Source of the DNA: Candidatus Peregrinibacteria bacterium
Lineage (GTDB): Bacteria; Patescibacteriota; Gracilibacteria; UBA1369
DNA length: 64,000 nt
Reading direction: 5' to 3'
Assembly: GCA_963708185.1 (NCBI GenBank)
Contig: OY970195.1
Coordinates: 544,001 to 608,000 of the forward strand
This document shows, piece after piece, positions 29,494 to 48,573 of this stretch. Every line of letters begins with the position of its first letter. Within the stretch, counting starts at the first letter, position 1. Made by a program: the position numbers and the translations under genes. The notes beneath the pieces are model-generated. The model searched no databases, was not told where the DNA came from, and worked only from the letters and a program-made list of their open reading frames with translations.

Positions 29494-29517
29494 AAAAAAA
29501 AGAACGCCGAAGCGTTT
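29494..29517 (-). terminator. Intrinsic terminator of cassette A
   Basis: Minus strand AACGC-TTCG-GCGTT followed by C and T8. Confidence 0.65.
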
Positions 29518-29586
29518 GAACTGAGCGCACGGCGCGAAGGCGTAAGCGTGTGGCTTTGCCACCGCTGGAGCGCGTTTAAAAAGAGA

Positions 29587-31089
29587 AAAACTCGCAGAAG
29601 TGTAAATCCCGGTCCGAAGAGGAGGAGGACGACCGCCGGTTTGAAAGGGGGGTCGGGATCACATGGATCCTGCAGTACCGCGTCGAGCGATACCGTTCCT
29701 CCGTCCTCTATCGGACGTGGGAAAGGTTATTCCCCCGCCGCTCTATGAGAGCGGCGGGGTACTGTTGTTGTTAATGGGTGAATGCTGCTTCAAGTCCGAC
29801 GGAATCGATCCGACGGACGAGCAGCGGTTGTTCCTCACTGCACGACGGCTGCGCACGCGATCTGAGACTGGCTGTCTCCGACCGCCTCGTTGTCGATCAA
29901 CGAGTTGTTGTTGGCCGTACCGCGATCGATGAACTCGGACGAGCAGGACCCGGGGAGGCAGTTGCGGAGGTCCGCAGCCGCGTCCTGGAGGCCCTGCAAC
30001 CCAGCCACGTAGCTGAGGTTGTCCGGGTTCTGCCCGTGGTTCGCGGCCAACACGCTCTTCAGCGGGTTGTACCACTCGCACGGGTGATCGCCCGAGCAGG
30101 TGAGGACGTTGTTCGCACCGTACAGGACGGCGCAAACCACGGTCGTCCCGTCAGACGAGCTGACGATGACGGTCTGGCCGGGGGTGAACGAGCCGTCCGT
30201 GGTGAGCGAGGCGTCGACCCAGCCGAGCGTGCTGCTCGACAGGGACGGCTTCCACGTCACGTCCGTGCCACCCGAGCTGTTCGGGACGCAGGTCCCGCTC
30301 GAGCAGTAGTAGCCGCTCGAGCAGGCCGGGGTGCAGCTTCCGCTGCCGTTGGGAACGCACACGCCGTTTTCGCACGTGGTGCCGGATCCGCAGCTGTTGT
30401 TGCAGTTGCCGGAGCCGGAGACGCACTGCCCGTTCGAGCAGTAGGTTCCCGACCCGCAGCTTCCGCCGCAGGTGTCGCTGCCGGACCCGTTGCCGCCGGG
30501 TACGCAGTACCCGTTGTTGCAGATCGTTCCCGTTCCGCAGGTCACGGAACAGGAGCCGGTCGCCGGGCGGCAGGTGGCGGGAGACGAACTGCTGTCGCAG
30601 TACGTGCCCCCATCGCACATGTCGTTGCACGGATCGTTGCCGCTGAACTGGCACTTGTCGGTGAGCGTGTTGCAGACGGCGCCGTCGTGGCAAATGCCGT
30701 CGCATGCCGTGTTGCTTCCGCCGCCCGTACCGCTGCACGCGGGATCGCCGTTCAAACAATACGGTTGGTCGTTGGACGACCCGCCGCAGCCGACGGCCGC
30801 GAGCGCGGTGACGAGGGTGACGAAGATGGCGACACTGAGCTTCAGGTTGGTCTTGGTCATGACTTGTTTCTCCAAACTGGGCTGAGGGCTTTGGGCCCCC
30901 CGAGGAATTTTGGGCTGTAGGGCCCTGGGTAGCACCACCATGGTGCGCCCCCGGTCCCTACTTCCTCGAAAGTTAGGGCCCGAATCCGACTGCTTTGCTG
31001 GCTGCGTCTATCTTCCACAAACGCAAAAACAAACAGGTTCGGACCCTGACTTTCTTGTTGAATAACCATTAAAATCTTCTGCGAGTTTT
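29587..31089. repeat. 14-bp inverted repeat enclosing cassette A
   Basis: AAAACTCGCAGAAG (29587-29600) is the reverse complement of CTTCTGCGAGTTTT (31076-31089). Confidence 0.85.
29835..30860 (-). CDS. Cys-rich repeat lipoprotein, myxobacterial style (cassette A)
   Basis: Lipobox LAAVGC; repeats C..TCG.GT.C.NG.CV; SD GGAGA before ATG. Confidence 0.8.
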   Translation of the reverse strand: MTKTNLKLSVAIFVTLVTALAAVGCGGSSNDQPYCLNGDPACSGTGGGSNTACDGICHDGAVCNTLTDKCQFSGNDPCNDMCDGGTYCDSSSSPATCRPATGSCSVTCGTGTICNNGYCVPGGNGSGSDTCGGSCGSGTYCSNGQCVSGSGNCNNSCGSGTTCENGVCVPNGSGSCTPACSSGYYCSSGTCVPNSSGGTDVTWKPSLSSSTLGWVDASLTTDGSFTPGQTVIVSSSDGTTVVCAVLYGANNVLTCSGDHPCEWYNPLKSVLAANHGQNPDNLSYVAGLQGLQDAAADLRNCLPGSCSSEFIDRGTANNNSLIDNEAVGDSQSQIACAAVVQ

Positions 31090-31176
31090 CAAAGAACTGT
31101 GCTGATGCACCGCTTGCGAAAAGACGCAAAAATACATCAGGTCACGAATGATACTATATTTTTGCTGTTTTGTCAA
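31086..31176 (-). promoter_or_regulatory. sigma70 promoter and boxA-like element of cassette A
   Basis: TTGACA (31176-31171)-N17-TATCAT; GTTCTTTGAAAA at 31097-31086. Confidence 0.75.
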
Positions 31177-31332
31177 TACTCCTGAGAACAAAAATATCAT
31201 ACGAATTCGTCCGGTTTTCAGGCCGGAAAATGATAATGTTTTCAAGGGTTTTCCATTACAAAAAAACCGCTGTCCCGAGTCAAAAACCGGAACAGCGGTC
31301 AAATCGCTCGTTCACCAGGTAAATTGGAAAAA

Positions 31333-32196
31333 TTAATGGGTTTCCACGATGCCGTCACTGGGAACGTCAGCGCAGTGGATGGCGACGTCCGTGTCTGCTA
31401 TCGGATCGTTTTCCTGCCAGCTCTGGTTGGAGCCCGCGGCGCGCCAGACAAAAGCGTTCGCCGGGCGGTATTGTTGAGGGGTCGTTCGGTAGCTGATGAG
31501 CTGCCCGGCCGCGTCTTTTGCGGCCTGTTGTGATGTTAAGTATGCCAAATCACCCGGGCTGTGGCCGGTTTGAGCCGCCAGAAAATTCGATTCAACATCC
31601 CACCATTCCCCGCTGCCGTTCATGGTTAAAATCGTGCCGCTGCCGTATCCGACAAAACAGACTGTCGCCGGGGTTTCGGTTTGATGAAACCAGACCGTGT
31701 TTCCCAAAGGGTAATTTGCTCCACCGTTGTTGATGGTCTCTATCCAGCCGTTTCCGGAACCTGCGTGCGCATTCTGCCAGGTGACTCCTGCAAAGGTATC
31801 ATGGGAAACCGGATCACATTTTTTGGTGTCGGGATTGCAGACCGTTCCTTTTCCGCAAAGATTGTCGCAAGGATCGTTGTTAGTGTCGGGAACACAGTGT
31901 TTTGTGGCTTCATCACAGTGTGTTCCACTGCCGCAATTATCACCGCAGACGTTCATTCCGGCATCGGAACCACCGTCTCCCAAGCTGTAAGGACCGTCAT
32001 CGGATCCGCCGCATCCCTGGGAAAGCAGCCCCATGCTGATACCCGCAGCCGCAAGAAATTTAAGTACCGCTCCGCGGGCCTGATGACGTTTTGACGTAAA
32101 GTTTGGCGTCGAAACTCCGCTTGTTGCCGCAGATTCAGGATGAGGGATCGCATCCGGCCGTGAAAAAACCGCTTCAGCCTGTTGTGGGTGAGACAT
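31333..32196 (-). CDS. Cys-rich lipoprotein paralog of cassette A gene, in resident-genome style
   Basis: LLSQGC lipobox, two Cys repeats, C-terminal domain alignable to 29835-30860; no SD. Confidence 0.75.
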   Translation of the reverse strand: MSHPQQAEAVFSRPDAIPHPESAATSGVSTPNFTSKRHQARGAVLKFLAAAGISMGLLSQGCGGSDDGPYSLGDGGSDAGMNVCGDNCGSGTHCDEATKHCVPDTNNDPCDNLCGKGTVCNPDTKKCDPVSHDTFAGVTWQNAHAGSGNGWIETINNGGANYPLGNTVWFHQTETPATVCFVGYGSGTILTMNGSGEWWDVESNFLAAQTGHSPGDLAYLTSQQAAKDAAGQLISYRTTPQQYRPANAFVWRAAGSNQSWQENDPIADTDVAIHCADVPSDGIVETH

Positions 32197-32313
32197 AGGT
32201 TTGGGGGTTAGGGATATGAAAAAAGGGTGTTGTGAACGTGATTGACATATTTCTGAAAACTTTAATGCAAACTCCGGCAGGTTCATTACAAAATACAGGT
32301 TGCATAGATAAGG

Positions 32314-32355
32314 AAAAGGGCCGTCCTCGTAGCTTGTAAGCTTTGAAGACGGCCC
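32314..32355 (-). terminator. Intrinsic terminator of cassette B
   Basis: Minus strand GGGCCGTC...GACGGCCC-TTTT. Confidence 0.65.
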
Positions 32356-32547
32356 CTGATCCTGTTCTGATTGTCTTTGGCCTCCGCATAGCGGGGCTGT
32401 GCACCGTGACCGTGAGGTCTTGGCGCAATCCGGTTCATGAAATATCCATTCTGCCTTACTTTCCGCGAAGGCTTGCGTGCTTCGATGAGAGTCGAAACCG
32501 CTCTTGCCCGAATGCAGTCGGACGCTGTGTGCGAATGTAGGGCCTAC

Positions 32548-34884
32548 TCAGTAGTTGAAGACGAAATAGGCCCAGTTGGACGGACAGTCCGCGCTCACCG
32601 AGAACGATCCGGGGTTGGTCTTGAGAAGGACGTACCCCGTCGTGTAGATCGCTCCGTAGAGATCGGGTTCCAGCTTCGGCGCCGGTCCGGGAGAAGGAGC
32701 CGAAGGAGCGCACTTGAAGTAGACGCTCAACGGCCCCGTTCCCGAAGCGAACGTGAAGTCGACGGTCTGTCCGGGAGTGAGGTTGATTGCGACCCCGACA
32801 TCGTCATTCGGTGAAGTGTTGACGGTGAAGGGGGTGCTCTGGCAGGTAGTGTCGTCCGATGACGAATCTCCGAGGATGACTCCGTAGTGGAGATGAATCA
32901 CCTTGGTACAGGTGCCCGCTTCGATGCAGGTACCCGTGGTAGACGAGCAGGGACCGCCGGCATCGCTGCCGCCGCTTCCTCCCGAACCCGAGCTACCACT
33001 GGAACCGCCGGAACCGCTGGAGCCGGAGCTCCCGCTCGTTCCACCGGAACTGGTACTTCCGGCTGCACCACTGCTTCCGGCAGTGCCTCCGCTTCCGCCG
33101 CTTCCGGCATCTGCAGGAACACACATGTCGGTTGCAATGTCGCAGACCGTACCTGCTCCGCAGGCGCCTCCACAAGGAAGGCCGCCATCAGAGCCGCCCG
33201 CACCACCACTACCGGATGCGCCCCCACTGCCGCCGCTGCCGGCGTCAGATGGGACACACATGTCGGTCATGGTGTCGCAGACGGTGCCAGCTCCGCACTT
33301 TCCGTCACACGGCAAGACGAGGTCGCACAACCCCGTCATCGTGTTACAGACCGTACCGAGACCGCAGTGACCGCCGCAAGGATCTCCCCCGCCGCTGCCA
33401 CTGGACCCCGAACTGCCGCTGGAACCGCTGGAGCCGGAGCTCCCGCTAGATCCAGCACTGCCACTCGTGCCGCCGCTGCCTCCGGATCCGGAGGTGCAGA
33501 CACCCAGGGTGACGTTGCACGTCGTCCCTGGGCCGCATGCGCAGCTGCACGGATCCATGGCCGGGGTGCACGAACCGGCATCGCTGCCGCCCGCGCCTCC
33601 CGTTCCGGATGAACCAGATGAACCGGAAGAGCCGCCGCTGCCGGAGCTTCCCCCGGTGCCGCCGCTGCCTCCAGATCCGCCGGAGATATCGCACAGCCCC
33701 GTCATGGTGTTGCACACCGTGCCGGGGCCGCACTTATTCCCACAGGGATCGGTTCCTCCGCCGGAACCGCCGCTTCCGCCGCCACCCATATCCCGGTAGC
33801 AGTCGTTGTCGACGATTCCGTCGCAGTCGTTGTCGATGTGATCCCCGCACTCCTCCGGGCCCGTAGGCACGCAGATGCAGAGCGGAAGACCGTCATCAAC
33901 CTTGTTGTTGCAGTCGTTGTCGCGACCGTCGCAGACTTCGGGCATGGGCGAGCCCGGGATTGCGTCGCAACGGGTTGCCCAGGGCCCGTCGCAGATCACC
34001 TTGCCGAAGGCAAGGCAATCCCCAACGCCGAGAGTGCAGGGAAGGTTCGTCCCCCAGCCCTCGTCGATGAGGCTGTTGCCGTTGTTGTCGATACCGTCAC
34101 ATTTCTCGGCAACACAGAGCTTCGTGACGGGGTTGCAGACGGTGGTGCTTCCACAGACGCCGCCGCAGGGATCGCTCCCCGAGTCGCCGCCGCTTCCGCT
34201 GTCACCGCCAGTTCCGGAGTCGCCCCCGGTGCCGGCGTCGGACCCGCCCGTTCCTCCATCGCTGGATTCACAGGTGCAGGTCGACGTGTTGCAGTGGGTT
34301 CCCTGGCCGCAGTGGTTGTTGCAGTTGTTGCAACTCCCGCCGTCGGTGTTGGGAACACACTGTCCGTTGAGGCAGGTCGTGCCGGAGCCACAGTGGCCCC
34401 CGCAGTCCCCGCCGCCGTCTCCGCCCGGTACGCATTGCTTTGTATCCGGGTCGCAGACGGTAAGGGGTGGAGCGCAATGCCCTTTGCAGGGATCGCCTCC
34501 GCCGCCGGTCTCGCACTTGCCAGTATCCACGTTGCACGTGGTCCCGGAGGCGCAATGACCGCCGCACGGATCTCCACCACCCGCGACGCACTTGTCGGTC
34601 GCGACGTCGCAGGTGGTTCCGGGAGCGCATTTGCCGTTACAGGGATTGCTCCCCGGCGGCAAACACTTTCCGGTGTTTTGATCGCAGACGGTTCCGGGGC
34701 CACACGTGCCCTCGCAAACGTCCACGCCGCCCTCTCCGGTTCCGGAGCTTCCTCCGGTTCCGGGAGGGCATTGCCCGTTGAGGCAGAAGGGATGGTCTCC
34801 CTCGCTGCTGCATCCCACCGCGATAGCGATGGGGGCGAACAGTGAGAGTACCACCCACTTCCACCGCCTACGCGGTGAATACAT
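32548..34884 (-). CDS. Large Cys/Gly-rich repeat lipoprotein with MopE-related metal-binding repeats (cassette B)
   Basis: IAVGC lipobox; many DPC.G.C..GT.C repeats; EKCDGIDNNGNSLIDEG, EVCDGRDNDCNNKVDDG; GGSSG and DAG linkers; SD GGAGA before ATG 34884. Confidence 0.82.
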   Translation of the reverse strand: MYSPRRRWKWVVLSLFAPIAIAVGCSSEGDHPFCLNGQCPPGTGGSSGTGEGGVDVCEGTCGPGTVCDQNTGKCLPPGSNPCNGKCAPGTTCDVATDKCVAGGGDPCGGHCASGTTCNVDTGKCETGGGGDPCKGHCAPPLTVCDPDTKQCVPGGDGGGDCGGHCGSGTTCLNGQCVPNTDGGSCNNCNNHCGQGTHCNTSTCTCESSDGGTGGSDAGTGGDSGTGGDSGSGGDSGSDPCGGVCGSTTVCNPVTKLCVAEKCDGIDNNGNSLIDEGWGTNLPCTLGVGDCLAFGKVICDGPWATRCDAIPGSPMPEVCDGRDNDCNNKVDDGLPLCICVPTGPEECGDHIDNDCDGIVDNDCYRDMGGGGSGGSGGGTDPCGNKCGPGTVCNTMTGLCDISGGSGGSGGTGGSSGSGGSSGSSGSSGTGGAGGSDAGSCTPAMDPCSCACGPGTTCNVTLGVCTSGSGGSGGTSGSAGSSGSSGSSGSSGSSGSSGSGGGDPCGGHCGLGTVCNTMTGLCDLVLPCDGKCGAGTVCDTMTDMCVPSDAGSGGSGGASGSGGAGGSDGGLPCGGACGAGTVCDIATDMCVPADAGSGGSGGTAGSSGAAGSTSSGGTSGSSGSSGSGGSSGSSGSGGSGGSDAGGPCSSTTGTCIEAGTCTKVIHLHYGVILGDSSSDDTTCQSTPFTVNTSPNDDVGVAINLTPGQTVDFTFASGTGPLSVYFKCAPSAPSPGPAPKLEPDLYGAIYTTGYVLLKTNPGSFSVSADCPSNWAYFVFNY

Positions 34885-35136
34885 CGTTTTCTCCATGTGC
34901 CGGTCGTCACCGGCGTCGAAATTCCTCCGCAGGTGCGATCGTCATCGCAGCGGATTCACACTTTGCGCCGACCGTATTGTCTGGCGCGATGTTCTTGTTG
35001 GTAAACGATCGCGCCATAGTCGGCGACGTTGGTTGAGGTTGAGGTTTTGCATTCCCCGCGGGTGACGGATGTCGAATCCGTAAACCCGCGGGGTGCGCGA
35101 GGTGCCGTCTCAATTCCTTGCGGAAGAGCCGGCGGA

Positions 35137-36276
35137 TCAGAAACGGGCCCCGAGCGTACCGTGGGCATCGATGGCAGCGGCGTAGACGTTCTTGTCGCCG
35201 CCGTCGATGTGGTAGGACTGCATGAACGGCAACTGGGGAGAAGTCCCCAGCCCGAGGTAGACGCCGCGCCTCTCGTCTCCCGTCAACATGAAGTTGACGC
35301 CGAGATTGAGCGCGAGGCCGCCCTCGATGTCGTTCTTGGCGTGGTTGTTCCAGACCGTACCATCGGCCGCCTGGCCGATGTTGGTGTCGGGAACGTGAAT
35401 CCAGCGCATGAACGGGCCACCACCCAGGACGACGTCCACGCGGCTCCCCACCGGGATGCCCGCCTGGAACATGACGCCCCACCAGGTGATGTCCTGCCAC
35501 ACGCTGGGCTCGGTGAGCGGAACGCCCACCACGCCGCGGTTGTCGATGCGGCCGCGGGCATACCCCGCGAACGCTGCAACCTCGAAGGCCGTCTCGTTCA
35601 CCGGACCCACGTGGTACGTGAACTGTCCCTGCACGCCTCCCGCGACATCGAAGCCGCCGGTACGGAAGTACGCCATCGGCTCGAGGTCGAGCCTGGTGCG
35701 TCCGTCCGAACCGAAATGGGCACCCAAAGGCTCGTACCTCGAGTCGGATTCCGGCCTGGTGTAGGAGTCGCCGATGTTGGCCTTGCCGACGAGATCGCTC
35801 TTGTCGGCCTTGCCGTCGAGCTTGCCGTTGACCGCGTCGATGGCCGGCTGTTCCACGAGCTTGTCCTTGCCGTAGACCATCACGGTGAAGGTAGCACCGC
35901 TACCGTCCGTGAAGGTCAGCGTCTTGGACGCACCCGGGTCGACCGCCACCTCGCCCTCGAACTCCGCGAACGCGGAGACGAGGACGACAGTGGTGCCGCT
36001 CTTCGTTTCCGACACCTCGGGCTTCGTCAGCGGAGCCGGGAAATCAGAAGAAGTGACCTTCCCCTGGGTCCCGTTCTTGCAGTACAGGCGAATCCGAAGA
36101 CTCGCCGAACCGCGGACCACCACACCGGAGGTGTTGGTGGTGCCGACGTAGTCCTGGATGCCGTCCTTGAAGATGAGCGGCTGCCGACAATCGGCAGCGA
36201 ACGCGGTCTTGCCCACCACGATGGTGGCGAGCGCGAACACCAACCCGACGAACCCTTTCATGAGCTTGTGAGACAT
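35137..36276 (-). CDS. Secreted protein with putative outer-membrane beta-barrel C-terminal domain (cassette B)
   Basis: Signal peptide ending AFA; alternating hydrophobic strands; ends HGTLGARF; SD-like AAGGTG. Confidence 0.7.
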   Translation of the reverse strand: MSHKLMKGFVGLVFALATIVVGKTAFAADCRQPLIFKDGIQDYVGTTNTSGVVVRGSASLRIRLYCKNGTQGKVTSSDFPAPLTKPEVSETKSGTTVVLVSAFAEFEGEVAVDPGASKTLTFTDGSGATFTVMVYGKDKLVEQPAIDAVNGKLDGKADKSDLVGKANIGDSYTRPESDSRYEPLGAHFGSDGRTRLDLEPMAYFRTGGFDVAGGVQGQFTYHVGPVNETAFEVAAFAGYARGRIDNRGVVGVPLTEPSVWQDITWWGVMFQAGIPVGSRVDVVLGGGPFMRWIHVPDTNIGQAADGTVWNNHAKNDIEGGLALNLGVNFMLTGDERRGVYLGLGTSPQLPFMQSYHIDGGDKNVYAAAIDAHGTLGARF

Positions 36277-36289
36277 GTTTTTCACCTTT

Positions 36290-36980
36290 CATCTGACTGT
36301 TGAACTCTTGTGTCCGAGCCGCGCTATGGGAGCAACGAACCGGACGAACCTATGATACTCCGCCTTATGGGCGGTGGCCGCCTACGGCCCAACTTTTCCT
36401 TTGAATCGTAAGGCCGATACGGCCTAAACCGCCCGCCACCACAGCGGAGCGGTTCGCCCTTAGTGCATGTAACTACCCTTTCGGGGCTGCATGCACATAG
36501 GGCCGAGGCGGTGGTGTGGGCGCCTCTTGCGGAAGCGCTTCATACTACCTTTTCCTTTCCTCTACCCTCTTGCTCTTACCTTAACTCACCGAAGTGTGAG
36601 TATGTCGGCGAACTCGAGAGCTCATAACTACTCTCCAGGGCTGGGCCCTATTAAGCAGACCCGTCAAACGGACCTGCAGAAAAGCAGCTTTGAGCTCTCG
36701 AGTCACCAAAAAAATTTTAGAATGTTTTGTACACACGAACTTGCGTTGGCCCGCTCTTAAGGAGCTAGCACACTCGCTTCTTCGTGTTTCATGAACCGGA
36801 TTTTCAAAGATCCATCAGTACAGGAAGCCCAAACAAACAATTTCGTTCTGTTTGAGCTTGTAAAAGACACTTAAAATCGAGCCCTTCCAGCCTTTTCCTT
36901 TGCCGGAATCAGTAGCCCGATGTTCAATTTGTGTCTTTTATAAGCCCAAAAGAGTTGAGGGGTAGGTAAATTTTTAAAGG
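36290..36980 (-). ncRNA. Long structured 5' leader RNA of cassette B
   Basis: About 700 nt between promoter and first ATG with many stems, e.g. ACTCGAGAGCTCA/TGAGCTCTCGAGT (36612-36624/36691-36703). Confidence 0.55.
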
Positions 36981-37015
36981 AAGTAATTATAACCACAAAA
37001 GTCTATTTTTGTCAA
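36801..37015 (-). promoter_or_regulatory. sigma70 promoter and boxA-like element of cassette B
   Basis: TTGACA (37015-37010)-N18-TATAAT (36991-36986); GATCTTTGAAAA at 36812-36801. Confidence 0.75.
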
Positions 37016-37169: not shown

Positions 37170-38303
37170 ATGAAGCAAACACCTCATTTTGTGATTTGCG
37201 GAAATTACGGCGCCACCAACATTGGTGACGAAGCTATTTTGCAAAGCATTTTGCAGTTTTGCCGCCACGCTTTTCCGCATGCGGACATTACCGTCATCAG
37301 TTCGAATCCCGCACGCACCGCCGAGCAGTACGACGTCAAAACCGTTCCGATGATGCCCGCTGGCCTTCGCTCCTACGTCAAAGCTTTTTTCAGCAGAAGC
37401 ATGCGAAAAACACTCCATGCCTATAAACGCGCCGACGCCGTCATTTTTGGCGGAGGAGGCCTTTTTACCGATGAAAGACCACACGCCATTTTCATCTGGC
37501 TCATGCAAATTCTTCCCGCTTTCCGATATAAAAAGCCAGTAATGAGTCTCGGTCAAAGCGTCGGTCCGCTCATGAACAGATGGAGTCGCTGGGTCGTGGG
37601 GAAAATTTTCAGGAAAATGAAAATCGTTACCGTCCGCGATGAAGCCTCGCAACTGCTGCTCAGAAAACTGAACGTCCGCAACATCCACGTTTTGCCTGAC
37701 CCTGTTTTTGGCTTTCACCTGAGGAAATCACACGAATCTCCAGCCCCACGCGAACGCAAACCCTACATTGTTTTTTCGTTGAGGCCGTGGATCAGAAATG
37801 CCGAAAAAATCCGCGGAATTCTCGCGCAATTCGTTGACTGGATTTTTGAAACGTACCATCTGCGCACCTACTTCGTTCCCTTCCAGTCGCTCCATGATGA
37901 TGACGAAAATGAATGTCTCCAGGTTCTTCTCAAACTGGAACATCGAAGCGTCTGCGAGGTTCTTTCGCACAATGAAGAGATGCGTGACACCCTCAAATTG
38001 ATGGAAGAGTCCACGGCGGTTATCGGGATGCGTCTTCATTCCATTATTTTTTCTGCGATAACGCATACCCCGTTTTTAGCGCTTTCCTACAGCCTAAAAG
38101 TAGCAGAGGTTGCCAAACAGCTTGGGATGGAAGACTTCCTGGACGAGTACCGGTTCGTGGATCTGGATACGTTGAAAAAGAAATTCGAAAAACTTTTCAG
38201 TGAGCGAACGCACGTGGAAAAATCTCTTGAGGAAATGCATAAAGAGCTGGAGCACAAAACCGAACAGTATGCTCACATGATCAAACAGCTTGTGGATGCC
38301 TGA
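37170..38303 (+). CDS. csaB: Polysaccharide pyruvyl transferase, CsaB-like
   Basis: GNYGATNIGDEAIL, GGGGLF.D, QSVGP, TVRDEAS, GMRLHS. Confidence 0.85.
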   Translation: MKQTPHFVICGNYGATNIGDEAILQSILQFCRHAFPHADITVISSNPARTAEQYDVKTVPMMPAGLRSYVKAFFSRSMRKTLHAYKRADAVIFGGGGLFTDERPHAIFIWLMQILPAFRYKKPVMSLGQSVGPLMNRWSRWVVGKIFRKMKIVTVRDEASQLLLRKLNVRNIHVLPDPVFGFHLRKSHESPAPRERKPYIVFSLRPWIRNAEKIRGILAQFVDWIFETYHLRTYFVPFQSLHDDDENECLQVLLKLEHRSVCEVLSHNEEMRDTLKLMEESTAVIGMRLHSIIFSAITHTPFLALSYSLKVAEVAKQLGMEDFLDEYRFVDLDTLKKKFEKLFSERTHVEKSLEEMHKELEHKTEQYAHMIKQLVDA

Positions 38304-38319
38304 GCGTTCTGAGCGCACG

Positions 38320-38946
38320 TCATTCAATCGTCATCTGAAGAAGATTGTGCACCGGAGAGAAACTTTTGCGGTGGATCGGGCAGGCTCCGTGTGTTCTGAG
38401 TGCTTCCTGATGCTCTTTTGTGCCGTAGCCTTTGTGACCGGCAAAGCCGTATTGCGGATATTTTTCGCCGAGTTCGCTCATGAGCCGGTCACGGACAACT
38501 TTTGCCATAATGGAAGCGCAGGCGATAAGTTTTACCTTTTCATCGCCCTTGATGAGGGTCTTCCACGGATGCGGAAGACTCATGCGGTCCCTGCCGTCCA
38601 CGAGGATGAATTCAGGCACATGCCCCTTTTGTTTGAGCTCTTTCAATGCCCTGATGAATGCCAGGTTATTGGCTTTTAAAAGTCCAAAACGATCGATTTC
38701 ATCGACTTCCGCCCTTCCGATGCCGAACGCCGCTTTCCGTTCAAGAAGCTCGTAAAACTCCTCTCTTTGGGCTTCAGAAAGGTGTTTGGAATCCTTCAGA
38801 TGGGCCAGGCGCAGTGACTGGGGGAACATCAAGGCACAGGCCACGATCGGGCCGGCCCATGGTCCCCGTCCGACTTCGTCCAGACCGCATACCAGATGGT
38901 CGTCTACCCCTGGGGGAACAAGTTTATGTATCGGAAGAAAAGCCAT
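38320..38946 (-). CDS. rnhB: Ribonuclease HII
   Basis: GLDEVGRGPWAGP, DSK, ASIMAKVVRD, HKGYGT, HRKSF. Confidence 0.95.
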   Translation of the reverse strand: MAFLPIHKLVPPGVDDHLVCGLDEVGRGPWAGPIVACALMFPQSLRLAHLKDSKHLSEAQREEFYELLERKAAFGIGRAEVDEIDRFGLLKANNLAFIRALKELKQKGHVPEFILVDGRDRMSLPHPWKTLIKGDEKVKLIACASIMAKVVRDRLMSELGEKYPQYGFAGHKGYGTKEHQEALRTHGACPIHRKSFSPVHNLLQMTIE

Positions 38947-39004
38947 GCCAACACTGTAGCTCCGTTTTGAATTTTTGTGTTTTACTCCGGCTTGCAAAAT
39001 ACAA

Positions 39005-39030
39005 AAAAATCCAGCATACGCTGGATTTTT
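39005..39030. terminator. Intrinsic terminator after rplS
   Basis: AAAAATCCAGC-ATAC-GCTGGATTTTT. Confidence 0.75.
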
Positions 39031-39055
39031 GACAGTTCGGGTTGAAACTTCTCGA

Positions 39056-39661
39056 TCAGTCCTTCTTCTCTTCTTTTTTCGCTTCAGCCTTGGTTTCCGT
39101 CTTTTCCGGAGCTTTTGCTTCTTCGGTTTTGACTTCCGGCGTCTGAGGAGCGGTCGTTTCTTCGGCCTCGCCTTTTGGCGCGCCTTCGGCTGGAGCCTCC
39201 ATCATGGATTCCATTTTTTCAGCTTCAGCGGCAGCCTGGGCTTTGTGGTCGACACCCATGGATTCCATGAGATCAGCCTTCTTTTTGCTGTACTTCTCGT
39301 CTTTTGCAGTCAGACCCACGTGAGCGCGGAGGCGGGTTGCCTTACCGGAAAGTTCACGCATGTAAAAGAGCTTGGCTCTGCGAACCTTTGGCGTCTTGGT
39401 AATTTCAATTTTCGTCACGAGCGGTGAATAAAGCGGGAAAGTCTTTTCCACGCCGATTCCCTGGACCATCTTGCGGACCTTCATCATTTTGCTTCCGCCG
39501 TGACCTGCATTAAAGCCCATCACCAGGCCTTCAAAAACCTGTACGCGTTCCTTTTCACCTTCACGGATTTTCTGATGGATGCGAACGGTGTAACCCGGAC
39601 GGATCAACGGAAGTTTCTTGATGAACTTCTTTTCGATGTCTTGGAGTAAGTGGTGCGTCAT
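39056..39661 (-). CDS. rplS: 50S ribosomal protein L19 with long charged C-terminal extension
   Basis: EGEKERVQVFEG, GVEKTFP, VRRAKLFYMR. Confidence 0.95.
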   Translation of the reverse strand: MTHHLLQDIEKKFIKKLPLIRPGYTVRIHQKIREGEKERVQVFEGLVMGFNAGHGGSKMMKVRKMVQGIGVEKTFPLYSPLVTKIEITKTPKVRRAKLFYMRELSGKATRLRAHVGLTAKDEKYSKKKADLMESMGVDHKAQAAAEAEKMESMMEAPAEGAPKGEAEETTAPQTPEVKTEEAKAPEKTETKAEAKKEEKKD

Positions 39662-39741
39662 TGCTTTAAAACTAAAAATTTGCCTTTGTAGTGTACGGAT
39701 TGGATGCTGAAAAATCAAGAGCAAAAGCGCTCTCAATCCTG

Positions 39742-40299
39742 TTATTTTTTCTCAAGGTGGTTCACGGCCACGATGTTCTCGGGATCATCGACGAGATCGG
39801 ATAAAAACTTGTCCTTACACTGTCGGCGGTAAATATAATCGTCGCGGGTCAAGACGGAATAGCGCACGGGACGTTCGGTTTCGAGCTCATTATTGAGGTA
39901 GTTTTCGAGGGTGTTGCGGTCGATTTTCCCCACAATCAAAAGGTCCAGCGGGCTTTCTTTTTCAACGAAAAATCCCGAAAGCACCATGACGTCAATCGTT
40001 CCCATCTGTGAAATTTTCTTGATGAGGGCGTCTTTATCCCCCATGGCTTTGAGGATGATACTTTTGAGCTCGTGGAAGATGACAAAATTTTTATTCACGA
40101 TATAGTACTTCTTGCGATTTTTCTCCTTGCTCTTCAAAAGGCCCATTTTCTTGAGATTATCAAGCTCGCGGCGGATGGAATTGATCTGTTCGTCGAGGCG
40201 TCTGGTGAGCTCGCGAATAAAGAACTCTTCGTCGGGGTTTAAAAGAAAGAGCGTGAGGAGTTTTATACGCGTATTTGAGGTAAAGAGCCGTTTAAGCAT
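39742..40299 (-). CDS. Winged-helix transcriptional regulator with nucleotidyltransferase-like C-terminus
   Basis: LFTSNTRIKLL..F, IRELTR..DEQINSIRRELDNL, DLLIVG. Confidence 0.75.
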   Translation of the reverse strand: MLKRLFTSNTRIKLLTLFLLNPDEEFFIRELTRRLDEQINSIRRELDNLKKMGLLKSKEKNRKKYYIVNKNFVIFHELKSIILKAMGDKDALIKKISQMGTIDVMVLSGFFVEKESPLDLLIVGKIDRNTLENYLNNELETERPVRYSVLTRDDYIYRRQCKDKFLSDLVDDPENIVAVNHLEKK

Positions 40300-40425
40300 G
40301 AGCTGGTGAGACGCTTGATGTATACATATTTTATACAAGCTGCCTGCACTGTATAAGTTTTTTTTTCAGATTGCAAGGTAAAAAAGCAGCGTCTGCGCTC
40401 AATTCCTCTTTATTTGGATAGAAAT

Positions 40426-40677
40426 TTATTCGTTTTCGATATCGGAACCGTTCGTATCCCTCTTTTCCTTGATCAGCTGCAAGAAGAACAAGGTATAAAA
40501 AGCCCCGGTTACAGCTCCTAAAGCCGCAAGGATAAGAACAATGAAAAATGCCGGAATGCTATCGGCAGGGACCAGAAGAAACAGAAAATACAAGGTTTTT
40601 GCTCCGAGATTTTCGAAAGCCAGGATCAAAACCAAAAAGCTGAATAAGATCGCTATGCTGAGAGAAAAAAACTTCAT
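40426..40677 (-). CDS. Small membrane protein, LapA/DUF1049-like
   Basis: Two TM helices with LILAFEN motif. Confidence 0.6.
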   Translation of the reverse strand: MKFFSLSIAILFSFLVLILAFENLGAKTLYFLFLLVPADSIPAFFIVLILAALGAVTGAFYTLFFLQLIKEKRDTNGSDIENE

Positions 40678-40742
40678 ATCAATATTTATTATACCATATT
40701 CATTTTGCATATGCTATAATATAGAAAAGTAATCATGAAGCC

Positions 40743-40988
40743 ATGAAAGGTTTTTACTTCGGTGTTTCAATCTTCCTGACCGTCGTCATCCTCATCATCG
40801 CATTCGAAAACATCAATGCGATGCTCAACAAATGGCTATTTTTTTTCGGGGCTTTCGGTCAGTTTGACGGATTTTTCATGGTTTTAGAAATCACCTTCAT
40901 TGGAGCGGTTATCGGTGTTTTCGGCACTTTGTTCCTGGCTAATCTCATGAGTAATGATGAAGAAGAGCCGGGCGGAAATGAATGGTAA
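40743..40988 (+). CDS. Small membrane protein, LapA/DUF1049-like (paralog of divergent neighbour)
   Basis: Two TM helices with LIIAFEN motif. Confidence 0.6.
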   Translation: MKGFYFGVSIFLTVVILIIAFENINAMLNKWLFFFGAFGQFDGFFMVLEITFIGAVIGVFGTLFLANLMSNDEEEPGGNEW

Positions 40989-40992
40989 TTCG

Positions 40993-42273
40993 TTACTTCC
41001 CGAGAAATCTTTCAAACAGTTTGTCCATCTTCATCTTGTTTTCCAGACGGCGCAGAAGGTAGCTGCCCTCTTTATATTCCTTGCGGACCTTGTACTGCTC
41101 GTTTTTTGGATACAGTTCGATGATGTGTTCCATTTCCTTGTTCAGTTCATCCTTGGAAACGTCGATCTTTTCCTGTTCAAAAAGTTTCTGCAGGCCGAAG
41201 CGCAGGGTCAGGCGTTTGACGGCTTCCTTGCGGCGTTCGTTGCGCAGATCCTTGAGCTCTTTTTTATTCTGCTCCAGGAACTGTTCAAGGGTTACGCCGA
41301 TCTGCTGGCCGAGCTCGTTCTTGAACTCTTCGACCATGGCGTCGATCTCTTCTTCTTCCAGAATTTCAGGAATGTCCACATTGGTGTGTTCAATAACTTT
41401 GTCCAGGAAGGCGTTTTCACGGCGAACCTTCTCGGCTTCCTGCTTGTCGCGCAGCAGGTTCTGGCGGACCACTTCCTTGACCTGATCGATCGTTTTTTCT
41501 TCGCCGGTGACCTGTTTGATGAATTCCGGCGTCCATTCGGGAAGCGTCGTTTCCTCGATGCGGTTCAGAGTGACCTTGAACTCGACCTTTTTGCCTTGGA
41601 ACGGCTTATGGAAGTAGTCTTTGGGGAACGTCACCTTGAACTTTTTTTCTTCGCCTTTCTTCATGCCGACTAATTCATCTTCAAAACCCGGAACCAGCGT
41701 GTTGTCGCCGATGACAAGCGGATGGTTCTTGCTGTTGGTGTTGTCCAGGGGAGCTCCTCCTTCGTCAAAACCCTGAAAATCAATCTCCACACGGTCCCCT
41801 TTTTTGGCTTCACGGTCAACGTCCTTGTAGGTGGCGTGGCGCTTGCGGATATCTTCCAGCACCTGGTCCACGTCCTTTTCCTCAACCTTTGGTTCCTCTT
41901 TTTTGATGGAAATCTTGTCGTAACCGGTCACGCTCACATCCGGGTAGATTGCGACCGTGGCTTCGTAGACGAGCGGATTTTTGGTCTTGATATCCACCTT
42001 GGGGCGGCTCACCACCTGCAGTTTTTCCTTCATCACGGCTTCGGTATAGGTTTCGGGAAGGGCGATATCAAGCATATGGGCTTCAATCCCCTGCTCGTTG
42101 ACGTGCTGTTTGAGGACGTCCAAAGGAACGTGGCCGGGGCGGAAACCCGGGATCTTGAAATGCATGGAAACCTGTTCGGCGGCCTTTTGCATGAATTTTT
42201 CAACCCGTTCGGAAGGCACTTCGATCGTCAGCTTCACCTGCGACTTGGGGAGTTTTTGAACGGTAACTTTCAT
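40993..42273 (-). CDS. tig: Trigger factor
   Basis: IPGFRPGHVP ribosome-binding motif; FKBP domain LVPGFEDELVG..VTFPKDY. Confidence 0.95.
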   Translation of the reverse strand: MKVTVQKLPKSQVKLTIEVPSERVEKFMQKAAEQVSMHFKIPGFRPGHVPLDVLKQHVNEQGIEAHMLDIALPETYTEAVMKEKLQVVSRPKVDIKTKNPLVYEATVAIYPDVSVTGYDKISIKKEEPKVEEKDVDQVLEDIRKRHATYKDVDREAKKGDRVEIDFQGFDEGGAPLDNTNSKNHPLVIGDNTLVPGFEDELVGMKKGEEKKFKVTFPKDYFHKPFQGKKVEFKVTLNRIEETTLPEWTPEFIKQVTGEEKTIDQVKEVVRQNLLRDKQEAEKVRRENAFLDKVIEHTNVDIPEILEEEEIDAMVEEFKNELGQQIGVTLEQFLEQNKKELKDLRNERRKEAVKRLTLRFGLQKLFEQEKIDVSKDELNKEMEHIIELYPKNEQYKVRKEYKEGSYLLRRLENKMKMDKLFERFLGK

Positions 42274-42354
42274 TGGGATACAGTTAAAATGCCCATAAAG
42301 CTTAGCGGGAAATGGCGGGTTTATCAATGGTTACTTAAATATTTTTAGGTGAAG

Positions 42355-44337
42355 TCACTTTTTCAAAAATTTCTTTTCTCTGTTTCCAAATTGTTTTCGA
42401 AATTTCATATTCTCCTGAGCCAGTGATTTCAAGTCGTTTTGTTCATTTTCACATCGAGCTATTAGGGTTCGATAGTTTTTTTTAGCTTCACTTAATTTCC
42501 CTAAGAGTTCAGATGTTAGCGCTGCCCCGTAATGGTTCCATATAGTTGTTTCATGTGTTTCAATACCTTTACAAAATCTTCGATAGGCTACTTCAATATC
42601 ATCAATACTTTGTGCCTTCGATAGACACTTCAAGCCATCTTCAAAACACTGTCGAGCTTCATTCTTTTGACTGTTCCTGGTTAACTCAACAAGTTCAACA
42701 AGTGATTCATTTGTTTTTTCGATGGAATCAATAATTGATTCTCCTATTCTGAGAACTGTTTCATCAATTCGGCGCAGTTCAGCGACTACCGCCGTTCTAG
42801 ATATTATCATTTCCATTTGAATGTTAGAAAGGGTCTTGTGGATGGATTCCAGTCTCACATTTGCTAATCTCATTTCGCTGGCGACACTCCCAATACTTTG
42901 GTCGATTTTTGTTAGTCTTTGGTCAACACTTCCTAATATTGTGATAGTAGCTCCAAATCCTCTTTGTAATGTCCAATTCACTTGTTCAAATCCCTCCTCT
43001 ACCATATCGGCGAAAACTCCGACAATTGATCCAAGATCAATCATTCCATCTTTTATTTCGGCCAGATTTCCGACGATGGATGTGAGATGGTAATTTGATA
43101 CGTCTCTTTGCCGGATTCCGATATCGCCTTGTTCAACCATTCTCTCACGCTGTACTATGGCCGCTTGATTCTGCCCAACCATAGTGTCCAGTTTGTGAAG
43201 TCCTTCTTTACGCTGGCGGTTCCCCACTTCCAGATGACTTACGGCTGTTTCCCCTTGACGGTAGAGTTTTTCTTGCTGTTCAAGCGATGCCGCTCCCAGG
43301 GCTGCTAGGACGTTCCGCTGGCCGATCGCCGTACGTGTATCTCTAGCGATATCGAGCAAGCTGTAATTGATGGTCGTCAGGGACGCATCATCTCTTGTTT
43401 CGGGAAAATATTTTAACACTTCGTGTTGGTTCGAGGGTGCAAGGAGGTGTTTTTTTCCCAAACTTACAAGCATTTCCTGAGGTACCGGCGTCTGTTGAGC
43501 TCTTCGGTAAGTCTCAAAAAAGCGATCTACAAAATCGACGACGCTTTTAAGCAACGGAAGGTTATATTGTTCTGCCGTCTTGAGAGCGGTTGCCAAATGG
43601 TCATACACTTTTCCCCGGTCTGAAGTTAGAAGTCCGAGAGGATTTCTAAAAAGATTAAGAGAGTCTCTGATTTCAGGAAAATCAAAGATCGTTTTGAGCG
43701 GAGGGATGGGAAGTTCTGTTTCTTCATTTTCCTGCTGGACTTGCTGATATCGAATCATCTGCTCTTTTTGAATTTTCGTTTCAAGTTCTCTTTCTATGTG
43801 CGGCACCACATTTTTGATTGGTTGCATTTTTTCCTGGAAAAGCTGCTGAAATTCTCCTATAGCATTGCGATTGAGAATTCCTTTGCTGTAAGCGCACATT
43901 GCGGCAAAAAAATCGCCATTTTTTTCGATCATAGCGGCTAGATTTTCGTGTGGATACGGAGGTCCCTTGAGGTCATTCAAATCACCGTGGAGCTGACCAA
44001 ACCCCTCTGAGGTCGCGTGTCCGAGTGCTTCGAGTTCCTGAGCACTGCGTTCGTGGGCGTTGTAGGCATTTTGCATTTCATAAGCAAGGTCCCCGAGAAT
44101 GCGTGCGGTTTCAGTGGCGCGAAAATCGCCAGCGGGTATTGTCATTGATCCGCCGTGAGCTTGAGCCAGCCTGTCGATAGCCTGTTCCTGGAAAGAGATC
44201 AGCTTTTGCTGAAAATCCCGATTCTCTTTTCTCCCTCTGTGGAGTTCGGCGACAATTCTCCCGTCCGGCGTATGGCTGGCCGGATACATGGGAATATCAT
44301 GGACCAAATTTTCCAGGAAACGGGAATTTTTAGCCAT
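42355..44337 (-). CDS. Hypothetical coiled-coil protein with TPR-like C-terminus
   Basis: 660 aa ORF, AT-richer, heptad-like helical segments. Confidence 0.65.
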   Translation of the reverse strand: MAKNSRFLENLVHDIPMYPASHTPDGRIVAELHRGRKENRDFQQKLISFQEQAIDRLAQAHGGSMTIPAGDFRATETARILGDLAYEMQNAYNAHERSAQELEALGHATSEGFGQLHGDLNDLKGPPYPHENLAAMIEKNGDFFAAMCAYSKGILNRNAIGEFQQLFQEKMQPIKNVVPHIERELETKIQKEQMIRYQQVQQENEETELPIPPLKTIFDFPEIRDSLNLFRNPLGLLTSDRGKVYDHLATALKTAEQYNLPLLKSVVDFVDRFFETYRRAQQTPVPQEMLVSLGKKHLLAPSNQHEVLKYFPETRDDASLTTINYSLLDIARDTRTAIGQRNVLAALGAASLEQQEKLYRQGETAVSHLEVGNRQRKEGLHKLDTMVGQNQAAIVQRERMVEQGDIGIRQRDVSNYHLTSIVGNLAEIKDGMIDLGSIVGVFADMVEEGFEQVNWTLQRGFGATITILGSVDQRLTKIDQSIGSVASEMRLANVRLESIHKTLSNIQMEMIISRTAVVAELRRIDETVLRIGESIIDSIEKTNESLVELVELTRNSQKNEARQCFEDGLKCLSKAQSIDDIEVAYRRFCKGIETHETTIWNHYGAALTSELLGKLSEAKKNYRTLIARCENEQNDLKSLAQENMKFRKQFGNREKKFLKK

Positions 44338-44506
44338 AATTACTCGTTAGAAGATAGCAGTACTATCATGAATTTCACGAAAAAGTCAACTCTTTGTCTT
44401 GCTTATGCCTTTTCTTGTCATTTTTTTGTTACAAATCCAGCCTTTTTTGTAATAAGGAACTATGGTATAATATTTAGATTAAAAGAATCTAAAAAATTCA
44501 TTAAAT

Positions 44507-47500: not shown

Positions 47501-48034
47501 CTCCAAAAGGAAACGAGTGCACCGAAAACCATCCTGAAACATCTCATGACCGGCCTTGCCCTGAAAGAGGCCTTGGACATCGGCAGCGGCATCGTGAAAT
47601 GGACCGGCAGCAAGCTTGGGAAAGCCTGCAGCAAGGCCGCGAAATTCGGCGTCAAAAAAGGCGGCGGCATCGTGGCATCGGTCTGGCAGAAGCTCGGCAA
47701 ACCCGCATTAAAAGGGACCGGCAAAGGCATCGCGTACGTTGGGAAAGGCGTGGGCAAGGGAGTGTACAAAGCCGGAAAATTCACGGTCTGGACCGCCCCG
47801 AAATTCTTCTTCTGGGATGCCCCGAGGTGGACGGCAAAAACGACTGCAAAGGCTTTATGGTGGCCTTTCAAGACCGTGGGTCGCGGCGCCAAAGGATTCT
47901 GGAATTTCTTCCATTATTCCGATGAAACACGCGCCAAAGACGCGGCCTGGTATGCCCAGAAAAAGGCTCATTCCGGAGGCCATGGCGGTGGTGGCGGCCA
48001 CGGAGGTGGCGGTCATGGCGGTGCCCATGGCTGA
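44507..48034 (+). CDS. Large hypothetical coiled-coil protein (1175 aa)
   Basis: Long K/E coiled coil; basic Gly-rich amphipathic C-terminal region; HGGGGG tail. Confidence 0.75.
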   Translation: MSGKEHHRPLTLEEMQEEEELKAAEHLHEGIKGFYLTDPFDGDIEPERLGVRDDIAHALEHDYHGKRVQDVLLDARVTEQLRQKIKRKKSHEHKTWKRLVPGSEEWMGNRKREIKNAARTLTNPMRWFRDDFDEYAEEIQKEFWGDPDSNKKIRNDLIQAVNLNALPQDIQDKIKKSFGAIKPGSPSLDQLFSSADNKKLLELLGSIKDNGGKKFFEGNAAFQRLLAASIPEEPYANELMLHSRDRLYFFTKYEIGAISDQNEQKRVVGTINNVFGIQSDTTLADFDHFLKATPDQLQKLSKTFDAIFVEGKAKIGKQHIERIREIERIIAIEKAKILSVQIYDPHRLQDQFVHKISESTASAEDKDLKEKLEKLLGGHFDRQMEQDHNLQALLAELESQRATNITQLNEHLENVLIDYPVEKRTVVKRELSEDEKQNNQKLDEYVETINNVAIKLDEKLDEKQKINSSFIDIGRKRNDLEKTRGAKKQQEHEVKMKIGNVREERKKAIIEIDSTQSNLTEKELEINTAKSECDRIERELRDEKKKNNPDQSVTSKLEKDLSDRKEELEHLKTDAKGLRAKLQEKKALKTDVDQDLEKLEKELREIATLDEFADLKTKNAEFTNRENELKKRLLELNKEIVEAEREFKKSANSFVMFVEKTMKKEIKGTVLTNDVKIKMIKDTLTTLNPSFVKQIATDLVFKNEFNQEINVLKAVGTEVKSLSPDNLLFELKKQQTLAIQENGHSKYTDEQANKIARMATSFAEIDAKNVELFRAGNREIAESKVKGWRGIEGVWRKSKQQAASRFFDSETFRARDIIEHIAGLDHAFECFKDLPADASLTDIRNAIKHHGGMSTENLMKFYLHLQEALKSFQVGGHRIVEIADHDWPIEQVALFAERIHAEIEAREFCHKIEHPETEEDKKLSKDNKAAYFQKLLNQRDENLKNLEQQHLEEMRNPSSLWQTSFLKSLMKGKFGEAYDKALKAAKEKGLKGQAMRDYLQKETSAPKTILKHLMTGLALKEALDIGSGIVKWTGSKLGKACSKAAKFGVKKGGGIVASVWQKLGKPALKGTGKGIAYVGKGVGKGVYKAGKFTVWTAPKFFFWDAPRWTAKTTAKALWWPFKTVGRGAKGFWNFFHYSDETRAKDAAWYAQKKAHSGGHGGGGGHGGGGHGGAHG

Positions 48035-48077
48035 ACCCATTATGTATTACTCACAATAAAAATTTAATCTCAACATT

Positions 48078-48452
48078 ATGTCTAAAAAACCACAATATTT
48101 CGATCCCACGGTCTTCGTGGACAAAGTCATGCGCGACTGCGATTTTGGCGACATTGACGATAAAACCCGTTCTGCTCTGGAGGAAGGCATCCAGCGCCGT
48201 CTGGCCGAACGCATCGTCGCTTCAATCATCGACAGTTTCAACGAACGGGAGTTCACTTTGCTCGAAAAGGTCATGGAGGACCATCCCGAACTCGATGACA
48301 TCGACTGCATCATGCTGATTTCCACCGAGGTTCCGAATCTCGAACAACGTCTCGAAAAAGCCATCATGGATCTTTATGACGAACTCACCTATGATGCGCG
48401 TCAGATCCAACAGGCCATGGATAACCGAAAACAGGCCGAACATGCTGCTTAA
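48078..48452 (+). CDS. Small acidic CPR protein (DUF5663-like)
   Basis: 124 aa helical ORF, RLAERI..IIDSF..EF..L..V.E pattern. Confidence 0.55.
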   Translation: MSKKPQYFDPTVFVDKVMRDCDFGDIDDKTRSALEEGIQRRLAERIVASIIDSFNEREFTLLEKVMEDHPELDDIDCIMLISTEVPNLEQRLEKAIMDLYDELTYDARQIQQAMDNRKQAEHAA

Positions 48453-48573
48453 ATAGGTTTAGGCCACCTTTTTGCCATTTGCGCAATCTTAAATACCCCC
48501 TCGAAAACGGCTCCAGGCATAGAAAAATGGGCCGTTTTTTGCTATAATATAAAGATTAATTTTGTACAAAATT

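Follow-up and report, generated by a model that had tools for sequence, protein, structure and literature searches.

The 64,000-nt window analysed here (positions 544,001 to 608,000 of contig OY970195.1, assembly GCA_963708185.1 of a Candidatus Peregrinibacteria bacterium) contains an island of four genes, all on the minus strand, which follow one another along that strand in the order D, C, B, A. Gene B (31333..32196) codes for a lipoprotein-type protein. Gene A (29835..30860) encodes its 341-residue paralog, gene C (32548..34896) a 782-residue Cys/Gly-rich lipoprotein with a lipobox region and stalk repeats like those of A and B, and gene D (35137..36285) a secreted protein ending in ...GARF. 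A sequence-only reading of this DNA had proposed that A and B represent one protein family in two expression formats, placed side by side. We refer to the genome under study as G000 and to three relatives from the same genus as G002, G003 and G004; proteins P0001 to P0005 and P0010 are family members from a large protein collection. G000 is a closed contig of 1.437 Mb with 49.8% GC. It contains no uL30 gene between those for S5 and L15. This gene is reported to be absent from all genomes of the candidate phyla radiation (CPR; excerpt of PMC9297842), and hence the gap fits a CPR organism.

The open reading frame (ORF) of B begins with the ATG at 32196 and ends with the stop codon at 31333-31335. 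Its 287-residue product is present with an identical start in the protein collection (P0001). The ATG at 32286 was rejected as a start site, since the conservation with G002 begins about 20 nt before the ATG at 32196, which is also the start of four of the five database orthologs. The protein consists of a signal region (residues 1-61, 32014..32196, minus strand, delimited by the ortholog sequences in the B-type alignment), two Cys-rich stalk repeats of the form C-x3-C-G-x-G-T-x-C-x7-C (residues 84-127, 31816..31947, minus strand, identified by motif count and alignable with the repeats of A and C), and a C-terminal head domain in common with A (residues 133-287, 31336..31800, minus strand, defined by alignments and an AlphaFold2 (AF2) model). 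A hairpin of 14 pairs followed by a T-run, which resembles an intrinsic terminator, is located 33 nt past the stop codon (31265..31300, minus strand).

The proposed kinship with gene A was confirmed by BLASTP, which aligns 226 residues at 30% identity (E 5e-23) and a segment around the lipobox (E 2e-05). The shared motifs that had been picked out by eye (GCGGS..D.PY, VTW...GW, VC.V.YG, LAA..G..P..L.Y, DAA..L and I.CA) are all present in gene B. The two differences in architecture that had been described are also real. B contains two C-x3-C-x5-C units and 11 cysteines, against five units and 33 cysteines in A, and 61 residues precede its lipobox cysteine, against 24 in A. The head domains differ as well, with one pair of cysteines in B-type proteins and three pairs in A-type proteins. 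Ten alignment columns, including one Cys pair, are invariant across 15 family members. B carries the hallmarks of this unnamed, genus-restricted head-domain family, namely a C-terminal domain of about 150 residues with the elements VTW, G-W, V-C, Y-G, E-W-W, Q..D.A and I-x-C.

Despite their common origin, A and B differ sharply in codon usage. With about 1210 longest non-overlapping ORFs of G000 as a reference, the mean G+C content at third codon positions (GC3) is 0.58 (sd 0.08). Gene B, at 0.552, is an ordinary member of this distribution (z -0.38; 70% of the genome ORFs have an equal or higher value). By comparison, the GC3 of A (0.895) and D (0.859) is not reached by any ORF outside the island; gene C (0.72) ranks in the top 2.6%. 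The difference between A and B confirms the reported excess of A/T-ending codons in B (Fisher p 4.5e-23) and leaves no room for the view that the two copies are indistinguishable in codon usage. It persists when only the homologous head domains are compared (GC3 0.63 for B, 0.92 for A, Fisher p 1.7e-9), which are equal in G+C content at first and second codon positions. All seven lysine codons in B are AAA, all five in A are AAG, and the genome uses 68% AAA; all eight phenylalanine codons in B are TTT, and all four in A are TTC. The codon preference of A is thus a reversal of the genomic preference and not its amplification. Codon bias due to high expression is ruled out as the origin of the GC3 of A, because the ribosomal-protein genes and the gene for EF-Tu have values of 0.51-0.75. 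On a larger scale, 1-kb windows with a GC content of at least 0.60 define only five regions in the genome. The two largest cover A (29501-31000) and C+D (32501-36500), and gene B sits in the 53% GC gap between them.

The second difference concerns the translation start. The initiation region of B (CCCTAACCCCCAAACCT followed by the ATG; 32197..32213, minus strand) is free of G and conserved between G000 and G002. As had been noted, a Shine-Dalgarno (SD) motif is missing: the last 20 nt before the ATG hold no G, and neither GGAG, GAGG nor AGGA occurs within 30 nt. This leader, ccctaacccccaaacct-ATG, is of the type used by resident genes and forms the only upstream stretch that is well conserved between the two genomes. 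SD-like motifs were found in none of 23 genes of the ribosomal-protein cluster, EF-Tu and SecY included, all with G-poor leaders. Genome-wide, GGAG, GAGG or AGGA occurs at positions -20 to -5 of 75 of 1214 longest-ORF starts, compared to 125 of 1214 at a control offset. Starting without an SD motif is therefore the norm of this genome and no peculiarity of gene B. The exceptions are A (or its equivalent), C and D: in four genomes, all 12 of these genes contain an SD-like purine-rich motif 5-13 nt before the ATG (GGAG in gene A), compared to neither of two B genes. The 3' end of the G000 16S rRNA retains CCUCC. A similar situation has been described for Bacteroidetes, where most genes lack SD motifs, the anti-SD is kept, and a few genes are SD-led (PMC7797042, in part). 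Unlike in Bacteroidetes, the SD-led exceptions in G000 form an island of surface-protein genes with extreme GC3. Two minor observations belong here. The leaders of the ribosomal-protein cluster (e.g., genome positions 38000-53600) often show CTTAAC or CTTAA 10-20 nt upstream, and, of two candidate start codons of gene C at 34896 and 34884, the SD-like GGAG is better matched by the latter, which may be the real start.

The third difference lies in the flanking signals, all of which are again on the minus strand. Gene A is preceded by a promoter-like site (TTGACA-17-TATCAT, 11 of 12 positions, 31148..31176) that is also present in G002, and by a boxA-like element (TTCTTTGAAAA, 31096..31086) which overlaps with the 5' arm of a stem (AAAACTCGCAGAAG, 31089..31076). 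The perfectly complementary 3' arm (CTTCTGCGAGTTTT on the RNA, 29587..29600) lies past the stop codon of A and is followed by a terminator-like site (29516..29503). Genes D and C share a second unit of the same design. The near-consensus promoter (TTGACA-18-TATAAT, 37015..36986) is followed by a boxA-like element (TCTTTGAAAA, 36810..36801) which overlaps with the 5' arm (AATCCGGTTCATGAAA, 36802..36787) of a 16-nt stem. The 3' arm of this stem (32442..32427) follows the stop codon of C and leads into a strong hairpin with a U-run (about 32300-32360, z -6.0 in G000). We call these units cassettes. Both stems are perfect, with 14 nt around A and 16 nt around C+D, and in G000 as well as in G002 they enclose these genes and not B. 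Gene B starts 230 nt downstream of the C+D stem and lies 230-270 nt outside the flanking stems on either side.

The claim that B itself has no such signals was borne out. Within 230 nt upstream of B, no sequence comes closer to TCTTTGAAAA than one with mismatches at 3 of 10 positions, whereas exact matches are found at A and D. The longest complementarity between the flanks of B is 8 nt, which is what shuffled flanks provide (mean 7.3, maximum 10). When the boxA-like element, the enclosing stem, the SD motif and a GC3 of at least 0.86 are counted as four traits of one format, A and D show all four, B shows none, and C shows the stem and the SD motif. All four genomes have both stems. The one around A does not vary, and its 5' arm AAAACTCGCAGAAG is kept in G002, G003 and G004. 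The C+D stem contains two compensatory pair changes in G002 and G003 (C-G to U-A, G-C to A-U); in G004, it shows a single U-G wobble and a single compensatory change.

The organization of the cassettes resembles that of a ribosomal RNA (rRNA) operon. In the leader of the G000 16S gene, the 16S processing stem begins with its 5' arm immediately after the boxA TGTTCTTTAACA. Leader-trailer helices and boxA elements have a general role in rRNA synthesis (PMC10250234, as excerpted). The A and C+D cassettes contain the same succession of promoter, boxA abutting the 5' arm, 3' arm after the gene or genes, and terminator. In contrast to rRNA operons, the helices of the cassettes enclose protein-coding genes and comprise only 14-16 bp; B has none of these signals. 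The cassette boxes are one or two bases off the resident rRNA boxA and off the gamma-proteobacterial consensus GYTCTTTAANA. Control of protein genes by boxA and Nus factors is documented for suhB, rpsJ and others, with boxA in the 5' untranslated region of the mRNA (excerpt of PMC5725501). These elements are repressive, at distances from the start codon of no more than about 50 nt. The boxA-like cassette boxes are located 215-520 nt upstream and are combined with an enclosing helix. Our literature search found no account of mRNAs enclosed by boxA and a leader-trailer helix. A genome-wide scan for boxA-like elements with a stem returned, beyond 16S, A and C+D, only matches of 11-13 nt in about the number that a rough estimate gives for chance. 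A 13-nt complementary pair after the box TTCTTTAAAA spans 5.8 kb with a GC content of 0.48 (genome positions 421377..415547, minus strand) and could be either a chance match or a third enclosed unit.

Since A and B belong to one protein family and share a strand at a distance of only 470 nt, neither regional mutation bias nor constraint at the protein level can be the cause of the cassette traits. The two relatives without gene B allow the question to be taken one step further. G003 and G004 each contain a single family gene, X_G003 and X_G004, which lies inside the A-type stem. Fourteen head domains were placed in a maximum-likelihood tree (P0010, which escaped the motif filter, is not included; X_G003 was trimmed to 156 residues). 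The tree separates six B-type proteins plus X_G003 from six A-type proteins plus X_G004 with a support of 95/94. By protein sequence, X_G003 is indeed B-type, with two head cysteines and the motifs YRPANAF and IHCAFVPNNG. By composition it is cassette-type, with a GC3 of 0.97 and an AGGAG SD motif. For the head domains, GC3 amounts to 0.63 and 0.59 for B of G000 and G002, to 0.92 and 0.96 for A of the same genomes, to 0.97 for X_G003 and to 0.87 for X_G004. A B-type sequence inside a cassette thus has cassette-type codons, which indicates that codon style tracks position and not ancestry. Together with the resident composition of B outside the stems, this observation assigns the cassette traits to the cassette transcript. 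Neither the protein family nor the location on the chromosome nor a foreign origin accounts for them, and the force that holds GC3 at 0.87-0.97 is directed at the sequence enclosed by the stems; family membership and surroundings are not its target. X_G003 (L014:10416-11511) has two oddities of its own: a change of frame near L014:10724, caused by a frameshift or by a sequencing or assembly error, and a C-terminal extension of about 70 residues which is absent from all other family members.

These results bear directly on the explanation that A, C and D were acquired horizontally from an SD-using donor of high GC content, with B as the native homolog. Several features of the cassettes speak for this explanation: they are the two largest of the five GC-rich regions in 1.44 Mb, their lysine and glutamate codon preferences are opposite to those of the genome, SD-like motifs are confined to them, and gene C contains a MopE-type motif below threshold. 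However, the contrast between A and B combined with the in-cassette B-type gene of a relative argues against simple foreign ancestry. Furthermore, four species whose housekeeping proteins are 13-39% apart share the same flanks, stems and promoters, and GC3 still stands at 0.87-0.97 with no amelioration. Donor-like homologs were not found. Gene A has five matches among 5.8 billion proteins, all of them either A-type in architecture or from contigs that also carry B-type genes, and the head-domain profile detects only 11 proteins among 1.84 billion representatives. Finally, the layout of the cassettes mirrors the 16S leader of the resident genome. We therefore consider acquisition from a donor an improbable explanation.

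The family is confined to one genus. Whole-genome searches detected it in 4 of 41 relatives; in a class-wide sample of 401 genomes, 3 had it. Both counts include G000. Peptide-pattern searches for related loci gave no match in genome contigs (with P0001) or in metagenome contigs (with the B-type alignment). Gene B has four orthologs at 52-58% identity, gene A five at 42-63%, and in two cases, proteins of the two types stem from contigs of equal length (13,241 and 22,374 bp). The island has the same neighbouring genes in all four genomes. In G002, the order is again D, C, B, A, and B is again outside both stems. Housekeeping proteins suggest that G000 stands no nearer to G002 than to G003 or G004 (61% kinase identity, against 78% and 74%). 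It follows that the split between A and B probably predates these four species and that two of them have lost or relocated B. By this sequence-based argument, A and B would have been kept together since before the sampled species diverged.

This conservation argues against the idea that B is a redundant and relaxed duplicate which escaped from the cassette and went out of use. Such a fate would agree with the failure to find B in G003 and G004, with the missing consensus promoter, and with fewer repeats and disulfides than in A. By contrast, the reading frame of B is intact in five lineages (G000, G002/P0005, P0002, P0003 and P0004) that have diverged to 52-58% identity, and the start region, the N-terminal motif and the invariant residues of the head domain are conserved. 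The ratio of nonsynonymous to synonymous differences per site (pN/pS) between G000 and G002 is 0.43-0.44 for B, near the 0.38 of the neighbouring kinase, compared to 0.53-0.63 for A and 0.88 for D; these ratios are rough, since synonymous sites are near saturation (pS 0.63-0.68). The protein also has a confidently predicted fold. Decay of B is very unlikely on this evidence. Gene D evolves fast, with 31-37% identity in four species whose flanking enzymes are 61-87% identical, yet its GC3 remains at 0.86-0.91.

We turn to the protein. The signal region of B starts with a conserved MxQPxxAExVxS motif, followed by a polar spacer, the segment R-x-G-x-L-K-x-L-A-A-A-G, a hydrophobic core, and a lipobox ending in ...SQG|C62. 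By eye, the h-region leads into ...LKFLAAAGISMGLLSQG|C62, and the orthologs read LTQGC, LTSGC or LASGC. This agrees with the usual pattern of a hydrophobic h-region that ends in the lipobox cysteine. The genome encodes the maturation enzymes LspA (Peptidase_A8, E 4.7e-29) and two copies of Lgt (LGT, E 1.6e-69 and 3.1e-43). The n-region has a Tat-like appearance. Export by Tat was rejected, since A-R-G-A-V-L-K-F-L-A-A-A-G contains a single arginine (RR occurs only in P0003) and TatC was found in none of the four genus genomes, with a sub-threshold match for TatA only.

According to the AF2 model, calculated from a 15-row alignment, the head of B is a beta-sandwich of about ten strands plus three helices, and it has one conserved pair of cysteines (C180, C275). 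When the predicted local distance difference test (pLDDT) score is averaged over blocks of ten residues, the means are 80-94 across residues 131-287; residues 1-3 and 5-82 stay below 50. Foldseek found no match for this model in the PDB at E <= 0.001. The best VIA-align matches of the head are jelly-roll sugar-binding domains of glycoside hydrolases (GH) from families GH2, GH31 and GH3, with Z scores of 5.1-5.5 that the tool rates as uninformative. About 90 residues align with the galactose-binding-like or carbohydrate-binding-module jelly roll, for example the N-terminal domain of GH2 enzymes (6mvf_A, Z 5.5, root-mean-square deviation 2.8 Å; 2xvg_A, Z 5.4), but the identity is 3-9%, sequence similarity is absent, and the Z scores are below the informative level. 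Searches of Pfam and NCBIfam assigned no family to B at E <= 0.1; A, C and D have no NCBIfam model, and A and D have no family at all. A protein atlas placed B in unnamed clusters only (0.89-0.90, with recognition below the mark set by the tool). From the model and the motifs, we infer that B is a lipoprotein of the cell surface whose stalk bears a binding head of the beta-sandwich type.

The repeats of the stalk provide a link to published systems. With their C-x3-C-G-x-G-T-x-C units, A, B and C are comparable to the secreted, very Cys-rich and repeat-built proteins of Peribacteria, for which a role in attachment has been proposed (PMC4736985, in excerpt), and to the cysteine-rich repeat proteins of Myxococcus. 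The Myxococcus cysteine-rich or MopE-type model finds no match in B; only C matches it (PF11617), below the cut-off. The Peribacteria genomes described in the excerpt have 1.25 Mb and 58.5% GC, different from the 1.44 Mb and 49.8% GC of G000. Gene C itself codes for at least 11 stalk repeats and long Gly/Ser-rich linkers; its PF11617 score is 25 bits at a cut-off of 27.

Taken together, the paralogy of A and B, the conservation of B, the existence of two formats, and the dependence of format on position are observed. With good confidence, we conclude that B is a functional, long-conserved paralog of A that is probably expressed as an ordinary gene of a CPR-type genome. Its mRNA would have a G-poor, SD-less start, resident codons and its own terminator, and neither a boxA-like box nor a leader-trailer stem. 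The protein would be made with a 61-residue Sec-type lipoprotein signal, including an unusually long and conserved polar n-region. Lgt and LspA would then probably produce a form with a lipid on Cys62 that is exposed at the surface of the cell. After maturation, the protein may consist of a short stalk of two disulfide-knotted repeats bearing the head of about 155 residues, which is probably a binding module. Protein A would present the same head on a longer and more disulfide-rich stalk, produced from an rRNA-operon-like cassette with a strong promoter, a boxA-like box, a stem, an SD motif and a GC3 of about 0.9. The GC-rich and structured mRNA of such a cassette may be unfit for the resident route of initiation, which relies on unstructured leaders, and may hence need pairing between SD and anti-SD. 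Together, the boxA-like box and the closed ends would help the polymerase to remain processive and the RNA to remain stable, which would suit a major surface protein. Expression of B would be lower than that of A or differently regulated.

Several points weigh against this interpretation. Gene B was not found in G003 or G004 and is therefore dispensable in some species. A sigma-70-like promoter was not detected upstream of B in G000 or G002, and expression of the gene may be weak or may depend on transcription running on from the C+D unit. DNA of gene B comes from two genomes only, so that the resident format rests on n=2. In the tree, the stem branch of A and the branch of X_G004 are long (0.68 and 0.9), which affects the grouping of A with X_G004. 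The lipobox cysteine is usually found within about 35 residues of the N-terminus. In B it is residue 62, far past this position, and the N-terminal 45 residues are polar and conserved in the orthologs; no ATG, GTG or TTG occurs between M1 and M55. Residues S and Q at positions -3 and -2 are atypical in G000. Finally, the weak fold matches (Z <= 5.5) point to no function.

One part of the sequence-only reading found no support. The two formats had been taken to suggest that one copy serves the surface of the symbiont and the other is exported, as in a homotypic adhesion pair. A and B both have lipoprotein-type signals, and with Lgt and LspA encoded in the same genome, the plain reading is that both reside on the surface of the cell that makes them. 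The part of the proposal that is well supported is one family in two formats side by side, with B as a valid internal control for GC3, SD use, boxA and stems. The evidence for export of the cassette copy to a partner cell, in the form of protein or conceivably RNA, while B stays on the symbiont is circumstantial: the SD motifs and codons of the cassettes are not those of the resident style of translation, the ends of the cassette RNA can pair, and the Cys-rich extracellular proteins of Peribacteria have a proposed role in attachment (PMC4736985, as cited above). On the other hand, the signals of A, B and C suit the cell's own Lgt and LspA, and the locus is not linked to any export device. Because the 16S rRNA keeps its anti-SD, the cell is able to translate the cassettes itself. 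By default settings, ARAGORN found 45 tRNAs in G000, which include Lys-CUU and Glu-CUC for the G-ending codons favoured by A; tRNAs for its favoured G- and C-ending codons are present with the exception of Asn, for which none was found in this mode. Prediction of a complex between the A and B heads scored 0.00 in two runs without controls, which is evidence neither way. We regard division of the two copies between partner and symbiont as highly improbable. We give as little credence to a broader version, according to which the cassettes are a second expression channel (boxA-modified polymerase, leader-trailer helix, GC3 of about 0.95, SD/anti-SD pairing) next to the default channel used by B, and which in its boldest form would make cassette RNAs stable and translatable in a high-GC, SD-using host, so that the partner would carry A and the symbiont B. 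In its intron mode, ARAGORN reports a tRNA-Asn(GTT) split by 2745 nt (genome positions 272778-275614); the same mode gives an obvious false positive inside gene A.

With B as an ordinary gene, the A/B pair amounts to a controlled comparison within one family, with members that differ in GC3 (0.6 versus at least 0.9), in whether an SD motif is used, and in leader and trailer signals of the rRNA kind. It makes testable the question of which transcript-level force keeps GC3 near 0.95 in protein-coding RNA enclosed by a leader-trailer helix, when translation in the rest of the genome starts without SD motifs. Our literature search found nothing relevant on codon usage in Peregrinibacteria and no statement on SD use in this lineage. 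The genus-restricted family of stalked surface lipoproteins may also mediate attachment in an uncultured CPR lineage.

A last observation concerns the leader of gene D on the minus strand, in particular positions 36290-36800. It measures about 730 nt from the promoter at 37015..36986 to the start of D, and contains a hairpin with arms at 36612-36632 and 36683-36703 (ACTCGAGAGCTCA...). The leaders of D in G002, G003 and G004 contain this hairpin, too.

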